Shown: positions 12,336 through 55,245 of the stretch, piece after piece
Layout of the letters: every line of letters starts with the position of its first letter
Numbering within the stretch: the first letter of the stretch is position 1
Source: a virus
Lineage: Duplodnaviria > Caudoviricetes
Direction: 5' to 3' (one strand)
Virus record (IMG/VR): IMGVR_UViG_3300042268_000564
DNA: 64,000 bases
Translations under genes and position numbers: made by a program
The notes under the pieces: model-generated
The model's database searches: none
Told to the model about the DNA's origin: nothing
Seen by the model: only the letters and a program-made list of their open reading frames with translations

Positions 12336-14465
12336 ATGTCATTAAAGCCCTATACTTCATTAGTTGTCTCTCAGCGAAATGCTGACGTAATAGGCAAGCA
12401 ACCCGACGTCGTCTATATGCTGGCTCCCGCTCTCAAGGGCGGAGCCAAGCTTGACGATAGCGGGAATATTGTATATGGCGAAAATGGCTTTCAGGTATTT
12501 GGGGCTTCAGAGGCTTTTTCGAGTCTGCCTGCGTTCGAGTATGAATTTGGCAATGCCGCTGATGGGAGTCCTGCATCTGTTTATGCGAAGTGGATATATG
12601 ACCACGGAAACTTTAATATCCGATGCAGAAGGATTGTCGGAAGTGACCTTAATTATGCAACGACTGTGTTAAAGAATGAATATGGACAAGATGTATTGCA
12701 GGTGAGGTCGGAGGTTCAGGAAGAATCAGGCAATAAGATTTTTGTTGATGTGGACAAGAGTTCTGGCGTGGAAGGTTTTCTTTATTCCACTAATGCCTAT
12801 TTTGATGCAAGTCTTAAAAGGTTATATGTAGGGAAACAATATTTACCGACAGACATTTTAACTTTTAAGGGAAGGGTTGCAGACCAACCTCTTTTGGTTG
12901 AGTTTTTTGGTGGCAGTGCAAATGAGTTTAATTTGTTTGCATGGAACAGAATACTTCATGCAACTGATGAGTCGGGGCAGTCATATTCTTACGTTACTGT
13001 TACTCCGACTGGGCTTGAGTTTACTTATGATGTTGGTACAAAGCAATTTGTATTCGGCGAGAACGTTACAGGACGAGTTGACATCCTTGTCGAGGCTGTT
13101 TTTGGCGAGGCAGTCAAGGTTTGTACGTGGATGGCAGGCAATACTTTTTCTTTTGATTTTGATGATATTCAATTTGACGGGCTTTATCTCAATGGCGTTG
13201 GTGAGGTTAATAATATAACCAAGAATAAATATTTGCGGTTATACAATGAAGCCCCCGACCAAGAGACAGTGATTTCATTTGAAGAAACATTAGATTTAAG
13301 AAAGATGCTCACTGTCAAAAATAGTATCCGAACAGAGACATACTTTTTGGACGAGCCAATCGATTTGATGAATGAGATAAATCTTCGTTCTCGTCTGGTA
13401 GCCGCAGATTTGCTTGTTAATGATTCATTTGTTGCAGAATTTTTTCCTGAGCAGGTATTGCAGCCCATTGGGTTCAAGTTGGCAGCTTACGACGGAAATT
13501 TTTTAAACTTGTATGACAATCTCAGAAGTGTAGCAGATGCAGCAGAGATTGATACGGGGCTTATAAGAACTACAGTGATGGGGGGTAGTTATGATGCGCC
13601 AGCTTTATCTATGGGCAATCAGTTGTCGGGTGGCAGTTCAGGGTTAGATGCGACATTGGCGGATTATCTGGAAGCGTTGGTTGAAGCAGGCTCTTTGAAT
13701 GATATTACCATAGTCATAGCACCCGGCGTTGATGATGCTACCATGCACATGCTGCTTGGCGACCATTGTCAAGAAATGTTCGGGCATGGGAAATACAGGA
13801 TAAGTATTGGCGGCGTGGGACTCGGTGAAACATTAGAAGAAAAAGTTGCTCGAACAAGCATACTTAATAACGAAAGGTTTTCTTTAATAGGTGATGGGTT
13901 GCAATTGAAAGACCCCGTTACTGGCGTTAAGAGGATGTTTTCTGGTTCTATTGCCGTAGCACCTTTTGTAGGACAGCTTTTGGCTCAGAATTATTACACA
14001 TCACTTACGAATCAGACATTAAGGAATGCGTATAACGTAGAGAATCATTACGATGATGCGCAACACAATGTTTTACATGAAGCCAGAATGATTACCTTTT
14101 ATTTCGATGCTGGTGTGAAAATCGTCGACGCTATTACAACGTCAACTTACAACGCCTATGAAGATATCCATATGTTAAGGATTTTTGATGCAGTAAGTCA
14201 TAGTTTACAAGTCGTAATGAAGGGTAACGTAGGCGAGGTCAACATGCCGCCACGTTGGGGATACATTTTGGCGAAAATGCAAAAGTATTTAGAGACACTT
14301 GTAAGTGTCGGGGCAATTTCGGATTTTAAATTATTGAATGAGGTTCGTGCGGAAGACATAGTTTCCAAGCGGTTCAGATTCAGAGTCGGGGTTATACCTG
14401 TGTTCCCTGTGAAATACATAGAGGGATTTGTAGATATTGTGCCACCTACATTTGTTCAGGTGTAA
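12336..14465 (+). CDS. Tail sheath protein 1
   Basis: Sheath motifs LSGGSSG, IVIAPG...HCQEM, IVDAITT, IHMLRIFD and the C-terminal PVFPVKYI. Confidence 0.85.
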   Translation: MSLKPYTSLVVSQRNADVIGKQPDVVYMLAPALKGGAKLDDSGNIVYGENGFQVFGASEAFSSLPAFEYEFGNAADGSPASVYAKWIYDHGNFNIRCRRIVGSDLNYATTVLKNEYGQDVLQVRSEVQEESGNKIFVDVDKSSGVEGFLYSTNAYFDASLKRLYVGKQYLPTDILTFKGRVADQPLLVEFFGGSANEFNLFAWNRILHATDESGQSYSYVTVTPTGLEFTYDVGTKQFVFGENVTGRVDILVEAVFGEAVKVCTWMAGNTFSFDFDDIQFDGLYLNGVGEVNNITKNKYLRLYNEAPDQETVISFEETLDLRKMLTVKNSIRTETYFLDEPIDLMNEINLRSRLVAADLLVNDSFVAEFFPEQVLQPIGFKLAAYDGNFLNLYDNLRSVADAAEIDTGLIRTTVMGGSYDAPALSMGNQLSGGSSGLDATLADYLEALVEAGSLNDITIVIAPGVDDATMHMLLGDHCQEMFGHGKYRISIGGVGLGETLEEKVARTSILNNERFSLIGDGLQLKDPVTGVKRMFSGSIAVAPFVGQLLAQNYYTSLTNQTLRNAYNVENHYDDAQHNVLHEARMITFYFDAGVKIVDAITTSTYNAYEDIHMLRIFDAVSHSLQVVMKGNVGEVNMPPRWGYILAKMQKYLETLVSVGAISDFKLLNEVRAEDIVSKRFRFRVGVIPVFPVKYIEGFVDIVPPTFVQV

Positions 14466-14543: not shown

Positions 14544-16781
14544 ATGTCAAATATACCTTATACCAGTCTCGTAGTCAATCCTGACGGGCTGGAGACTCTC
14601 GGTGGTCGCACGCCAGATGTAATTTACATGATGGCACCAGCACTCAAGGGTGGCGAAAAATTAGACGATGACGGTGTGCCTGTAATTGATATCAATGGAA
14701 ACACAGTTTTCAGAGATAAAATTTTCAGCACAAGAGAGAGTTTTGAACGGGAATTCGGACGGGCAAGAGATGGCAGCCAAGCATCAATCTACGCTAAGTG
14801 GATTTATGATAAAGGTAAATATGCTATTCGTTGCCGCCGTGTTGCAAGCAGTGATTTGGCTTATGCAACCGCAGCTCTTAAAAATGAAGCTGGCGATGAT
14901 ATTCTTCAAGTTAAATCAAGAGCGCAGAGCACATTCGCAAATGAAATTTTTGTAGATGTTGACGGCTCTACAAACAGAGAAGCTTATTTGGTTAAACCAA
15001 ATGCAGCTTTTGACCCTGCATTGATGGTTCTCGAAACCAATGAAGTTTATAGCGCAGTTGACAGACTTTTCTTTGAAGGTAAAAGACTGAGCGACAACCT
15101 TCCTTTCAGAATTGAATTTTACGGTGATGGTAGCACTCAGAATTTTGAACTTTTTAACTGGAGTCCAGTTTCAGGTTCAGCTCCTTTTATCGTAACTGAT
15201 GGACAGACAACCTTTGATTATGCCGGTCCAGACATGGCTGTTATCGACATTCCTGCCGGACAGTATTCTTATGATACTGCCACTAAGGAACTTAGATTCG
15301 GTAGCGCACCTGTGCTTGGCTCACATAATCTTTTGGTTAATACTCTTTGCCCATTTGGCGAAGCAAGATTGACTATGTCATCTAATGGCACTGCTCAGGT
15401 TTACAATATTGATTTCGCAATCAATGATGTAGATTTCTTGGCATTGTATGTTAATGGTATTGGCGCACAGTATGACCAGAAATATTTGAAGCTTGTTCGC
15501 TTGTATACAACTTCACAGTTCGTTTCAATGCGTGGGCTTACAGTAACAGTTGGCGCAGGAACTAACGTTGATACAATTAAGCTTACAATCGTTGCAGGAA
15601 CTGGCGTAAGCATGAAGGCAGAGGTTTATGACAATCTTGCTACTCTGGCAGATGTTGTGAATCAGGTTAATGTTTCTTCATCATTGGTTTTGGCAGAAAT
15701 TCTTGTGAATAATATGAATCAGTTGCCAGCAATGTGTACTGAAGTAGCTTTCTTGCCTATCGGGATTATGCTGACCATTCGCAATGGCAATGAAGTTGAA
15801 AAATTCGATGACCTTAGAGATGCAGAAGACATCTCTATGAAATTAAATGATGGCGCAAATGGTTCTGACCTCGTAACTATGGAAGTTATTGGTTCGGCAA
15901 ATCATGAATTGCCATCACTTGAGTCAGATGTTCAGCTTTCAGGTGGACGTTCTGGCGACAATCCAACAATTATTGATTATCTTGACGCTCTTGCTGAAGC
16001 AGCGGCTGTTAAAGATGTAACAATCATGATTGCCCCCGGCGTAGAAGATGAAGCTTTCCATGCTCTTATGAAAGATGAATGTGAAGCCTCGTCAAGCATC
16101 GGTGATTATCGTATCGCTTTCGCAGGTGTTGGACTTGGTGAATCACTTGAAAGAAAACAGCAGCGCACAAGAATCCTCAACAGTGAAAGATTGTCGATGA
16201 TTGGTGACGGTTTGTATCTTGTAAGTGCGTATGATGGACGCAGAAGATTATATTCTGGTGCTGTAGGGGTTTGCCCATTCGTAGCGCAGATTATTAGTCA
16301 GAAATTCTTCGTGTGCCATACTTACAAATACTTGTCTAACGCTTATGGCGTTGAACACGAGTATGATGATGCGCAGCATCAGGTATTGCATGATGCCAGA
16401 TTGATTACTTTCCGCATCAATAATGGCATTCAGATTATTGACGCTATCACAACATCAACCATTATGGCTTATGAAGATATCCATATGGTTAGAACTTATG
16501 ATGTGGTTAGCAGGGGTATCAGAAAGGCTATGGAAAAAGCCATTGGCAAATCCAATATGCCGCCTACTTGGGGTTGGGTGCTTGGAATGATTCAAAAATT
16601 CCTTGAAAGCCTGAGAAATATCGGGGCAATCATGGATTTCAGACTTCTTAATGAAGTTTCTATCCAAGACATCGTTGAAAAACGATTCAGATTCCGTGTA
16701 GGGCTTATCCCTGTATTCCCAATCAAGTATGTAGAAGCGGAACTTGATATTATCCCGCCAACCTACGTGCCAACCAGCTAA
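14544..16781 (+). CDS. Tail sheath protein 2 (paralog of sheath 1)
   Basis: Collinear with sheath 1 (PYTSLVV, PDV.YM.APALKGG, LSGG.SG, IIDAITTS, AYEDIHM, RFRFRVG.IPVFP.KY); strong ggagga RBS. Confidence 0.88.
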   Translation: MSNIPYTSLVVNPDGLETLGGRTPDVIYMMAPALKGGEKLDDDGVPVIDINGNTVFRDKIFSTRESFEREFGRARDGSQASIYAKWIYDKGKYAIRCRRVASSDLAYATAALKNEAGDDILQVKSRAQSTFANEIFVDVDGSTNREAYLVKPNAAFDPALMVLETNEVYSAVDRLFFEGKRLSDNLPFRIEFYGDGSTQNFELFNWSPVSGSAPFIVTDGQTTFDYAGPDMAVIDIPAGQYSYDTATKELRFGSAPVLGSHNLLVNTLCPFGEARLTMSSNGTAQVYNIDFAINDVDFLALYVNGIGAQYDQKYLKLVRLYTTSQFVSMRGLTVTVGAGTNVDTIKLTIVAGTGVSMKAEVYDNLATLADVVNQVNVSSSLVLAEILVNNMNQLPAMCTEVAFLPIGIMLTIRNGNEVEKFDDLRDAEDISMKLNDGANGSDLVTMEVIGSANHELPSLESDVQLSGGRSGDNPTIIDYLDALAEAAAVKDVTIMIAPGVEDEAFHALMKDECEASSSIGDYRIAFAGVGLGESLERKQQRTRILNSERLSMIGDGLYLVSAYDGRRRLYSGAVGVCPFVAQIISQKFFVCHTYKYLSNAYGVEHEYDDAQHQVLHDARLITFRINNGIQIIDAITTSTIMAYEDIHMVRTYDVVSRGIRKAMEKAIGKSNMPPTWGWVLGMIQKFLESLRNIGAIMDFRLLNEVSIQDIVEKRFRFRVGLIPVFPIKYVEAELDIIPPTYVPTS

Positions 16782-16849: not shown

Positions 16850-17485
16850 ATGAGTTTAATGAGATATGAACGTGAAAATAATCTCGTAGACGAAGCTCCG
16901 GGTCCGGGAGTGAATGAGCCAGCGATTTTCTCTGGCGCAGACGGGATGATTATGTTTGACGGCGAGCCAATGGCAAGACGTGTTGAAAGCTCAGTTGAAA
17001 TCGGTCTCGACTGGGACGAAGTATATTTCCAAGGGCAATACACAGTAGGTGCTTTGGTTCTTAAATCAATCAAGATTACTGGTGGTATCAAACAAGCTAC
17101 AGCCAACCTTAATGTTCTGAAAAAGTTCGTTGGCATGTCGCCTGCCGATGGCACAAGAGATGATGCAACAATCCGTGATGTAAGATATATCGCACCAGTT
17201 GATATTATTCTTATTCTGGACAAATCTATGCTTCCTCCGAACATTGCTTCTTATGAAGCGATATTGGTGTTCAATGCTGTTATGAACAGCTTCTCAATGC
17301 CAACTGCCGCAGCGAGCACAGTATTTAATGACCAGAAATGGACAGCATCGAACCTGAGCTTTAAAACTGGCACACCTATGGATAGCCTTAAACTTGTTGG
17401 TAATGAATTTGTTGCCAATGAATATGTTAATCGCAATATCCCAGAAGGTGGACGTGCTGGTGGTGAGGTTAACACTATTTGGTAA
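16850..17485 (+). CDS. Tail tube protein
   Basis: Directly after sheath; IFSGADGMIMFDG and SIKITGGIK resemble XkdM-like tube proteins. Confidence 0.75.
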   Translation: MSLMRYERENNLVDEAPGPGVNEPAIFSGADGMIMFDGEPMARRVESSVEIGLDWDEVYFQGQYTVGALVLKSIKITGGIKQATANLNVLKKFVGMSPADGTRDDATIRDVRYIAPVDIILILDKSMLPPNIASYEAILVFNAVMNSFSMPTAAASTVFNDQKWTASNLSFKTGTPMDSLKLVGNEFVANEYVNRNIPEGGRAGGEVNTIW

Positions 17486-17513
17486 GACAACGGGAACGGT
17501 AAATCTCCTGCTT

Positions 17514-17543
17514 AAAAGGGCTGAAGAAATTCAGCCCTTTTTT
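17514..17543 (+). terminator. Intrinsic terminator after tail tube
   Basis: aaaagggctgaa-gaaa-ttcagccctttttt. Confidence 0.9.
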
Positions 17544-17551
17544 ATTTCTAC

Positions 17552-17570
17552 AAGAAACTATTATATAGGG
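17552..17570 (+). promoter_or_regulatory. Candidate phage late promoter motif, copy 1
   Basis: aagaaactattatataggg, 17/19 identical to 55227-55245; both lie just downstream of a terminator. Confidence 0.5.
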
Positions 17571-17836
17571 GTGGCTGATTGATTTTTTTAGGGTTTTGAT
17601 GCAAAGAAACATAATGAAAGAATCAAAAGTTGTCCTCGAAGGGGTAAAATAATTTTAGATACAAGAAAACCTGTGTTTTCAGCGTATCTTTGCAAACCGT
17701 GTTTGCAATTGTCCTTTCTGCGAAAGCAGTTCAACAAATTTCTTATTTGTTGGAGTGAGGAGCCTACCGTCCCTCATATCAACAAACAGGCAAATAAGTT
17801 TTTATAACTTTGCTTGAACGGTGGCTGATTCAGCCA
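17570..17836 (+). ncRNA. Candidate structured non-coding RNA or leader
   Basis: Largest ORF-free gap in the window, holding about 7 back-to-back hairpins and flanked by the direct repeat ggtggctgatt. Confidence 0.5.
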
Positions 17837-17869
17837 GTTATTTTTAATTAACAAATGGGGGTTCCAATA

Positions 17870-18457
17870 ATGGACGAAGTTGAAAGAGCCAGAATGGCTA
17901 TGAATGGTGCCAAGGGGAGTTTGCCAGAAGAGTATAAGGAAAAAAACTCATCAAGTGAACTGAGCGCAGAAGAAAGAGCAGAGCTGAATTCACCTGTAGC
18001 TTCTGTAGGAAGTTTCAGCAATGGCGAAGCTGTTGAGATGACAGTTGATGACTTTCTTGCCGCTACAAAAAGAGACCACTACGTTTCTAAAACGTGGGAA
18101 AGCAAGAAACGTATCGTAAAAATCAAGAAATTCACCAAAGGTGACAATGACAGAGTTTCTTCCCCATTGATGAAGAAAACGGTCGCTATTGAGATTTCAG
18201 ATGACAAAGACCCAAGCAAATCAAAGCCAAAGCTTGATGTTTCTATGGAAACATTCACAGAAATGGAAAAGATTATGGTCGAAGTCGGTTTGAGTTATTA
18301 CCAGAAAGATAATAGACCTCTTATTGACCGTGCTTACATTGACAAGGTGCTTACCGCTGATGAATTTAAAGAGCTTGTAACACTTGTTCAAGAAGTGAAT
18401 CCTGAAGCTATGGCAGCAAGTGCCAAGGTCGAAAAGAACGAACAGTTAAAAAAATAA
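17870..18457 (+). CDS. Tail assembly chaperone (G-like)
   Basis: Between tube and tape measure; ends TTA AAA AAA TAA. Start refined to the ATG after ggggg (ORF track starts at 17855). Confidence 0.75.
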   Translation: MDEVERARMAMNGAKGSLPEEYKEKNSSSELSAEERAELNSPVASVGSFSNGEAVEMTVDDFLAATKRDHYVSKTWESKKRIVKIKKFTKGDNDRVSSPLMKKTVAIEISDDKDPSKSKPKLDVSMETFTEMEKIMVEVGLSYYQKDNRPLIDRAYIDKVLTADEFKELVTLVQEVNPEAMAASAKVEKNEQLKK

Positions 18458-55226: not shown

Positions 55227-55245
55227 AAGAAACTATTAAACAGGG
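55227..55245 (+). promoter_or_regulatory. Candidate phage late promoter motif, copy 2
   Basis: aagaaactattaaacaggg, 17/19 identical to 17552-17570. Confidence 0.5.

Follow-up and report, generated by a model that had tools for sequence, protein, structure and literature searches.

A putative miniature omegaRNA scaffold without a tnpB gene upstream of the tape-measure genes of a jumbo phage

Results

The gap between the tail tube gene and the tape-measure genes

The stretch of DNA analysed here (the window) is 64,000 nt long and comprises bases 191068–255067 of a 393,839-bp IMG/VR virus record (IMGVR_UViG_3300042268_000564). Every long ORF in it is on the + strand. Two tail-sheath paralogues (12336–14465 and 14544–16781) are followed by a 211-aa ORF (16850–17485, + strand), which from its position is the putative tail tube gene. 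On the 3′ side of the gap described here come an ORF of 195 or 200 aa, depending on its start, a 126-aa ORF and a 2039-aa tape-measure protein. The first of these has the position of a putative tail assembly chaperone. It probably starts not at the listed ATG at 17855 (200 aa) but at ATG 17870 (195 aa, 17870–18457, + strand), given that a GGGGG ribosome-binding site is located 9 nt upstream and that this start lines up with those in relatives. Measured to the probable real start codon the gap, described in an earlier note on this DNA, is 384 nt, which is unusually long compared to the 53–95 nt of most neighbouring gaps.

The tube gene is followed by an intrinsic terminator (17514–17547, + strand), consisting of a 12-bp stem and then a T-run. 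It is outside the insertion described below, and relatives have a terminator at the equivalent site. Next comes a promoter-like motif, AGAAACTATTATATAGGGGT (17553–17572, + strand), the 3′ GGGG(T) of which is the insertion point. A scan of the window for the motif, with up to 3 mismatches allowed, gave three matches where 0.23 were expected. One further perfect-consensus copy of AGAAACTATTATATAGGG is found at 55228 of the window, where it also follows a terminator. The sequence AGAAACTATTAWAYAGGG(G)T is found at both places (17553–17570 and 55228–55245), each time behind a terminator and before structural genes. Related forms, TATAAATAGGGGT and TATAAGTAGGGG, occur at the equivalent place in relatives (approximately 3690–3709 in contig L088 and 1437–1457 in L208), with a short leader hairpin next.

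No tRNA or tmRNA was found in a search of the gap region. Searches against Rfam (E ≤ 10) gave only sub-threshold matches in the region, driven by the terminator, and the RAGATH-18 model gave no match at E ≤ 10 in 17000–18400. Comparison with 50,697 phage records using blastn and megablast gave zero matches.

All seven hairpins that the earlier note had listed in the gap are present in the sequence where it placed them, and are also present in the MFE fold of 17550–17860. On the + strand this region is considerably more stable than shuffled controls (−87.8 vs −66.2 ± 5.1 kcal/mol, z = −4.20, 0/100 shuffles equal), with weaker folding of the minus strand (z = −3.0). The 134-nt core at 17689–17822 gives z = −4.29 on its own (0/200 shuffles equal). 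The 11-nt direct repeat GGTGGCTGATT was also described correctly, with exact copies at 17570–17580 (left) and 17820–17830 (right), both on the + strand; by our own arithmetic, a stretch of about 450 nt would contain roughly 0.02 exact 11-mer repeats by chance. The suggestion of a switchable leader, based on pairing of the 3′ CAGCCA with the 5′ copy of the repeat, did not fare as well, and the MFE fold does not contain this long-range pairing.

A 250-nt insertion that is absent from relatives

Related phages were found via the tube protein and the downstream protein, and their contigs were read. In L087 (tube 88% identical), L088 (81%) and L208–L213, there are 120–156 nt between the two genes, and the element is absent. 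The comparison with empty sites thus gives three related phage lineages without the 250 nt, in agreement with the other proposal of the earlier note, namely a small insertion. The sequence of L088 reads ...TATAAATAGGGGT, then 47 nt and the ATG, while in the window ...TATTATATAGGGGT is followed by 250 nt that end with ...GAACGGT, and after a further 47 nt comes the ATG at 17870. The spacing from GGGGT (or ACGGT) to the ATG is therefore 47 nt in both, and ...ATAGGGGT precedes the insertion, which is placed at 17573–17822 (+ strand), with a register that is ambiguous within the repeat. In L207, a contig from another sample, the element is present and has an identical sequence.

All three lineages have a 5–7-bp hairpin right after TAGGGG(T), and these hairpins have unrelated sequences. 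As the lineages share the position of the hairpin but not its sequence, the hairpin at 17822–17836 is assigned to the native leader, outside the element. It had been proposed as a part of the switch, a role that does not fit a native 5′ leader hairpin which has counterparts of different sequence at the equivalent position in relatives.

The omegaRNA scaffold

A search of the phage's own genome matched 17753–17822 of the window to genome positions 360252–360185 (minus strand) with 82% identity. The matched place consists of the last codons of a 400-aa tnpB ORF together with 23 nt downstream of it. An alignment was made of 48 non-redundant 245-nt tnpB 3′ regions from metagenomes, excluding the window, and a six-helix structure was written on it. 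In this alignment 90.8% of the cells pair, as against 40–55% when the partners are slid by 1–3 columns. Sixteen pairs are altered on both sides, and the covariation score is 0.379, compared to 0.08–0.14 in the slid controls.

A covariance model (R1) was built from the 48-sequence alignment and run on the window with filters off. It matched 17689–17822 with a score of 62.1 bits (E = 7e-17), covering model positions 1–245. The match contains two internal jumps, where 61 model positions correspond to 18 nt and 78 model positions to 9 nt, such that 139 model positions of tnpB coding overlap are replaced by 27 nt in the window. A profile based on sequence only (nhmmer) detected the last 85 nt of the element with E = 7e-11. 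In a scan of the whole genome with R1, the 360-kb tnpB's own scaffold scored 207 bits, its 357-kb paralogue 66 bits and the gap element 62.1 bits.

The helices can be followed one by one along the window (all on the + strand). HP1, TTGCAAAC-CGT-GTTTGCAA (17690–17708), is the covarying 5′ hairpin of the family with its invariant CGT loop; in the family, 5/6 of its pairs have compensatory changes. It is followed by a CTGC-GAAA-GCAG hairpin (17718–17729), which lies within the 18 nt that stand for 61 model positions. The S2 stem, TTCAACAAAT / ATTTGTTGGA (17730–17754), has one G-C pair flipped to C-G relative to the family and is closed in the window by a loop of 5 nt; at this place, full-length elements contain approximately 78 coding nt (the zinc-finger/RuvC-III stretch). 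HP3, GTGAGG-agcCTACCGTc-CCTCAT (17755–17777), is the TACCGT-loop hairpin of the family, with one pair altered on both sides compared to the phage's own tnpB copy. Finally, HP4 (AAGTT-tttat-AACTT within CAGGCAAA/TTTGCTTG) and the right-end tail TTGAACGG(T), at 17787–17822, are near-identical to the family. All the helices of the model pair in the window, and there are no non-canonical pairs, bar a register shift in HP4. The similarity to the family stops at 17821/17822, which is the right-end base of the family, and the native 47-nt leader then follows. The scaffold is about 81–84% identical to the phage's own and the closest right ends (i.e., 16–19% diverged), and that it fits this TnpB is an assumption.

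Some further pairings were noted. RNAalifold suggested that the HP1 loop (CCGU) pairs with the 3′ ACGG tail. This was dropped as unproven, since the covariation of column 13 is with column 17, in the local hairpin, and is doubtful also in that CGT is an invariant Arg codon. The strand ATTTGTTGGA (17745–17754) can pair either with TTCAACAAAT upstream (17730–17739) to give S2, as preferred by the 311-nt fold, or with ATCAACAAAC downstream (17779–17788), which encloses HP3 and is preferred by the isolated 134-nt fold. The tnpB family has no equivalent of the latter.

Based on the covariance-model match, the helix-by-helix agreement and the genome scan, it is concluded that the gap contains a miniaturised omegaRNA (reRNA) scaffold at 17689–17822 (+ strand), of 134 nt compared to approximately 245 nt in full-length elements. 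Judged by its sequence it is a miniature scaffold without tnpB, belonging to an IS607-type TnpB family, and there is very little doubt in our minds that the locus holds the remnant of a TnpB element together with its omegaRNA scaffold. No tnpB ORF is present in 17486–17869, so the scaffold is an orphan. The earlier proposal of a novel phage ncRNA was therefore right about the kind of molecule, as the hairpins correspond to helices of a TnpB omegaRNA scaffold, but not about its novelty.

A second miniature omegaRNA was not found among IMG/VR and GTDB genomes scanned with two gapped patterns (HP1 loop, HP3 loop and tail, closely spaced), although this is exact matching and hence a weak test. The patterns gave at least 117, 8 and 33 stretches, none of which fits the family profile or the covariance model (default filters), and the ones inspected were unrelated coding DNA. 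The exact right-end pattern had no match in IMG/VR.

The TnpB gene and its family

The phage genome contains five tnpB genes. The one at 360213–361412, approximately 150 kb from the element and of the same clade, encodes an intact 400-aa TnpB (P0001), which matches Pfam Cas12f1-like_TNB with 3.6e-15 and OrfB_IS605 weakly. It retains the family-invariant residues D226, E291 and D375, is only distantly related to the solved TnpBs, and is the genome's only strong cognate (207 bits for its own omegaRNA). The tnpB at 356.7–357.7 kb was considered as the cognate type and rejected: it scores 66 bits, but there is no TACCGT hairpin in its right end, the last bases of which are ...ATAACGG. This second tnpB adjoins the 360-kb gene and is 35% identical to it, and at 357574–357815 (+ strand) it matches the omegaRNA model end to end; going by its sequence, its 3′ end (...ATAACGG followed by AATTTTC) is a diverged sister type of omegaRNA.

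More than 130 homologues of P0001 were found, for 80 of which the metagenomic loci were fetched, and 53 of these have a complete 3′ end. In the 53 loci, conservation extends through a GGGnnn-TACCGT-nCCC hairpin, an AAGTT...AACTT hairpin and a tail (T/C)(T/C)(G/C)AACGG, usually followed by T. The members end with (A/G)ACG(G/A/T), and the flanks are unrelated right after this. Given that conservation ends at AACGG(T) and the flanks then diverge, the right end of the transposon appears to double as the omegaRNA scaffold. An alternative right boundary for the 360-kb element, between ...TTTGCT and TGAACGG, was ruled out, as the conservation of the family extends through AACGG(T).

In many of the homologues, the gene immediately preceding tnpB encodes a serine recombinase, whose C-terminal tail (...SSKIYGKRSAENRRKKK) overlaps the start of tnpB, and the family is accordingly classed as IS607-type. 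In the metagenomic loci L007–L086, the upstream partner alternates between an IS607 serine recombinase and a small RHH-like gene that has a TTGAC-type promoter of its own. The latter is found in the phage's own copy and in L008–L011, L018, L028 and L053. The alternation of the two partners suggests that the transposase has repeatedly been swapped for a regulator. No serine recombinase (PF00239) is present in the 394-kb genome of the phage; a copy in the host is possible. Searches of IMG/VR for loci, made with one protein at a time (the tail-tube protein and TnpB), found none.

One locus, L028, contains a perfect 91-nt tandem duplication (1996–2177) of the last part of tnpB and the right end (...AACGGT TTGG ATATTC...AACGGT). 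This gives two successive copies of the 3′ part of the scaffold (the last ~87 nt), with different downstream guides.

Junctions and the flanking repeat

In 16 left junctions of family members, from unrelated contexts, the sequence RGGG(T) is found before the element, and in 13 of the 16 it is exactly GGGT. The 3′ GGGG(T) of the promoter-like motif fits this left-junction sequence, which combines a TAM-like motif with the GG core. The motif is a candidate late promoter of the phage, with a G-run that also forms the target motif of the transposon. GG is found at both junctions, at 17570–17571 and 17820–17821.

The earlier note had considered a target-site duplication as the origin of the repeat. 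The GG(T) shared by the two copies is indeed to be expected from the GG-core rule of IS607 and from the family junctions, whereas the other 8 nt (GGCTGATT) are atypical: they have no counterpart in 11 full-length family members compared by eye. Possibly, the site was preferred for integration because it resembled the left terminus of the element. It is also possible that the true left end is a second GGGT (17591–17594), in which case 22 nt of leader were duplicated during insertion or repair; if a 6-nt gap is allowed, the likeness of the two repeat copies extends to about 25 nt. A third possibility is a recombination event involving a circular junction.

The 5′ part of the insertion (17573–17688, + strand), which contains the second junction-like GGGT, is possibly derived from a left end. 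It has a AAAAGTTG motif at about +30, which is common to some left ends of the family, and an extra HP1-like hairpin, GAAAAC-CTGT-GTTTTC, at 17658–17689, and it folds with z = −2.9. Neither a left-end profile nor blastn gave a significant match for these 116 nt.

Discussion

Comparison with known systems

In characterised systems, the guide of TnpB is the flank just past the right end of the element (PMC10705468; 10.1101/2023.03.14.532601). The closest parallels to the element described here are the gene-less PATEs, which "often encode omegaRNAs", necessarily used in trans by TnpB (Meers et al., 10.1101/2023.03.14.532601). The PATEs (IS200/IS605) are also protein-less miniatures which keep the right end and guide scaffold, take their guide from the right flank, and have their TnpB encoded elsewhere. 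The parent of our element, in contrast, is of the IS607 type (with serine-recombinase neighbours, a GG core and RGGG(T)) rather than the Y1-transposase/palindrome type. Its scaffold is moreover about 45% shorter than in full-length elements, it carries an extra 8-nt flanking repeat, and its host is a jumbo phage without a transposase. The element is a further member of the gene-less omegaRNA elements already described; what stands out is the natural compaction and the phage setting.

The IS607 TnpA requires a GG core, and in CboIStron the target 5′-TGGG is also the TAM of TnpB, which maintains the transposon by cutting the vacant site (10.1101/2023.11.20.567912). CboIStron shares with the element the GG core at both junctions and a G-rich target/TAM, which is TGGG there and the candidate RGGG(T) here. 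It differs in that the element has no tnpA, tnpB or intron, and in that its omegaRNA family is different in sequence.

Among RAGATH-18 RNAs orphans are common, 36% not being beside a tnpB, and the reRNA systems derived from them have a G-rich TAM, AGGAG or GAGGG (PMC11061315). The RAGATH-18-derived reRNAs (ISFba1; PMC11061315) resemble the P0001 family in having TnpBs of approximately 390–400 aa and serine-recombinase partners. However, the locus described here has no Rfam match, and the scaffold of the P0001 family overlaps the 3′ coding region of tnpB, whereas RAGATH-18 is wholly downstream. The TldR guide RNAs of temperate phages (PMC10705468) are likewise phage-borne guide RNAs of the TnpB type beside a promoter, but the TldRs are nuclease-dead and adjoin their guide RNA, while P0001 keeps its catalytic residues and is 150 kb away.

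A possible guide used in trans

The element sits at the GG of ...ATAGGGG(T), immediately after the promoter-like motif that precedes the chaperone/tape-measure genes. The explanation that we favour, with modest confidence, is that it is a protein-less derivative of an IS607-type TnpB element which supplies a guide to TnpB in trans, for homing or maintenance. The scaffold would be transcribed from the upstream motif as the 5′ part of the operon leader, and the TnpB encoded at 360213–361412 would bind and trim it in trans. The flanking 16–20 nt (GGCTGATTCAGCCAGT..., GGCUGAUUCAGCCAGU...) would then be the guide, directing a cut of the uninserted allele (RGGGT plus a guide match), whether this is met in co-infecting relatives or arises by excision. 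The element would then be copied back in by recombinational repair, which amounts to homing or maintenance. The predicted target is the empty allele, in which ...ATAGGGGT is joined straight to GGCTGATTCAGCC. The occupied site should be protected, since its right end reads ACGGT and not GGGGT. That the element still works as a guide in trans today we regard as an even chance.

Some observations count against this explanation. The predicted guide segment, GGCTGATTCAGCCAGTTATT (17823–17842, + strand), is also native leader and includes the 5′ hairpin. It is therefore self-complementary, which could hinder pairing with a target. With up to 5 mismatches allowed in 20 nt, the phage genome contained no second match to it, nor was the target found in the sampled relatives, whose leaders have diverged. 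There is no promoter of the sigma-70 type inside the element, and the compensatory changes could predate the loss of tnpB. Excision, which homing would normally repair, may never occur, given that the genome has no serine recombinase.

There is a small chance that the two components form a two-part RNA-guided system in which a single TnpB is served by a detached, minimised guide-RNA gene that is expressed together with the late tail operon in which it lies. If so, the phage could turn it on co-infecting relatives without the insertion, as a gene drive or a weapon, or alternatively use it as an RNA-guided brake on its own late promoter, via the 8–9-nt seed match at the left repeat.

Other explanations

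The main rival to a guide used in trans is that the element is an inert fossil, in other words a decayed scar which lost tnpB by deletion and is carried passively in the leader, its hairpins persisting because little time has passed. We consider this possible, though clearly less probable. It is consistent with a genome without a transposase, with the 16–19% divergence from the nearest right ends, with a 5′ part of 116 nt without recognisable homology, and with the failure to find a guide target in the phage genome. The atypical flanking repeat suggests an irregular origin, and a second, clearly degenerate inverted fragment is found nearby. However, random decay would usually break stems, and here every helix of the model still pairs: both internal deletions spare the helices, and at one of them a short loop closes S2 precisely at its base. 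In addition, an intact TnpB of the cognate clade is kept in the genome.

It is quite improbable that the element has been exapted as a cis-acting leader, in which the hairpins stabilise, process or attenuate the 5′ UTR of the chaperone/tape-measure genes independently of TnpB. The element lies downstream of a conserved promoter-like motif and ahead of the ribosome-binding site of a late operon that is essential, a location which would suit such a role, as would the terminator-like hairpins at 17690–17708 and 17822–17836 and the alternative pairing of 17745–17754 with 17730–17739 or 17779–17788. Against this, in relatives the operon is expressed from a leader of 47 nt that lacks the element, and homology to omegaRNA already accounts for each structural feature.

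Self-regulation, in which TnpB with the RNA would bind the left repeat copy without cutting and so throttle the late operon, is very improbable: the left copy, at the promoter-like motif, is GGGGT plus GGCTGATT, which matches the first 8 (8–9) nt of the guide and is preceded by RGGGT, and short seed matches can suffice for TldR binding, some TldR repressors using 9–11-nt guides on promoters, including in phages (PMC10705468), but P0001 keeps its catalytic residues, unlike the TldRs, an 8-nt match is short, and the repeat may be a mere by-product of insertion.

Implications

A candidate for a novel structured RNA is explained here as a known kind of selfish element, which spares follow-up work on a supposed new class. 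The element is a natural minimisation of an omegaRNA, from about 245 to 134 nt with each helix kept. If it is active, the mini scaffold marks the parts that are dispensable, which would be useful in the engineering of compact TnpB editors. An uncharacterised IS607-type TnpB family with a scaffold that overlaps its coding region gains a candidate TAM, RGGG(T), together with an exactly placed right end. As guide and nuclease are unlinked in a jumbo phage, RNA-guided homing between co-infecting phages becomes testable.

Other sequence similarities around the locus

The inverted fragment is an HP3-like 17-mer, GGAGATTTACCGTTCCC, at 17492–17508 (minus strand), with 15/17 matches to the HP3 consensus of the family. 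The similarity is weak: the profile aligns about 50 nt (to ~17534) with E = 0.039 in the window, and the covariance model gives E = 0.51. From its sequence, the 17-mer may be what remains of an older, inverted element of this transposon family, now incorporated in the terminator. The alignment runs through the hairpin of the tube-gene terminator up to the stop codon, and this stretch is missing in relatives.

The tube-gene terminator (GGGCTGAagaaaTTCAGCCC and a T-run) also resembles the leader hairpin (GGCTGAtTCAGCC and a T-rich run), the two forming an 18-nt repeat with 78% identity (17519–17546 vs 17823–17845). The GGCTGATT of the left repeat copy likewise resembles both. The metagenomic element L008 has TGGCTGAAG directly after its right end.
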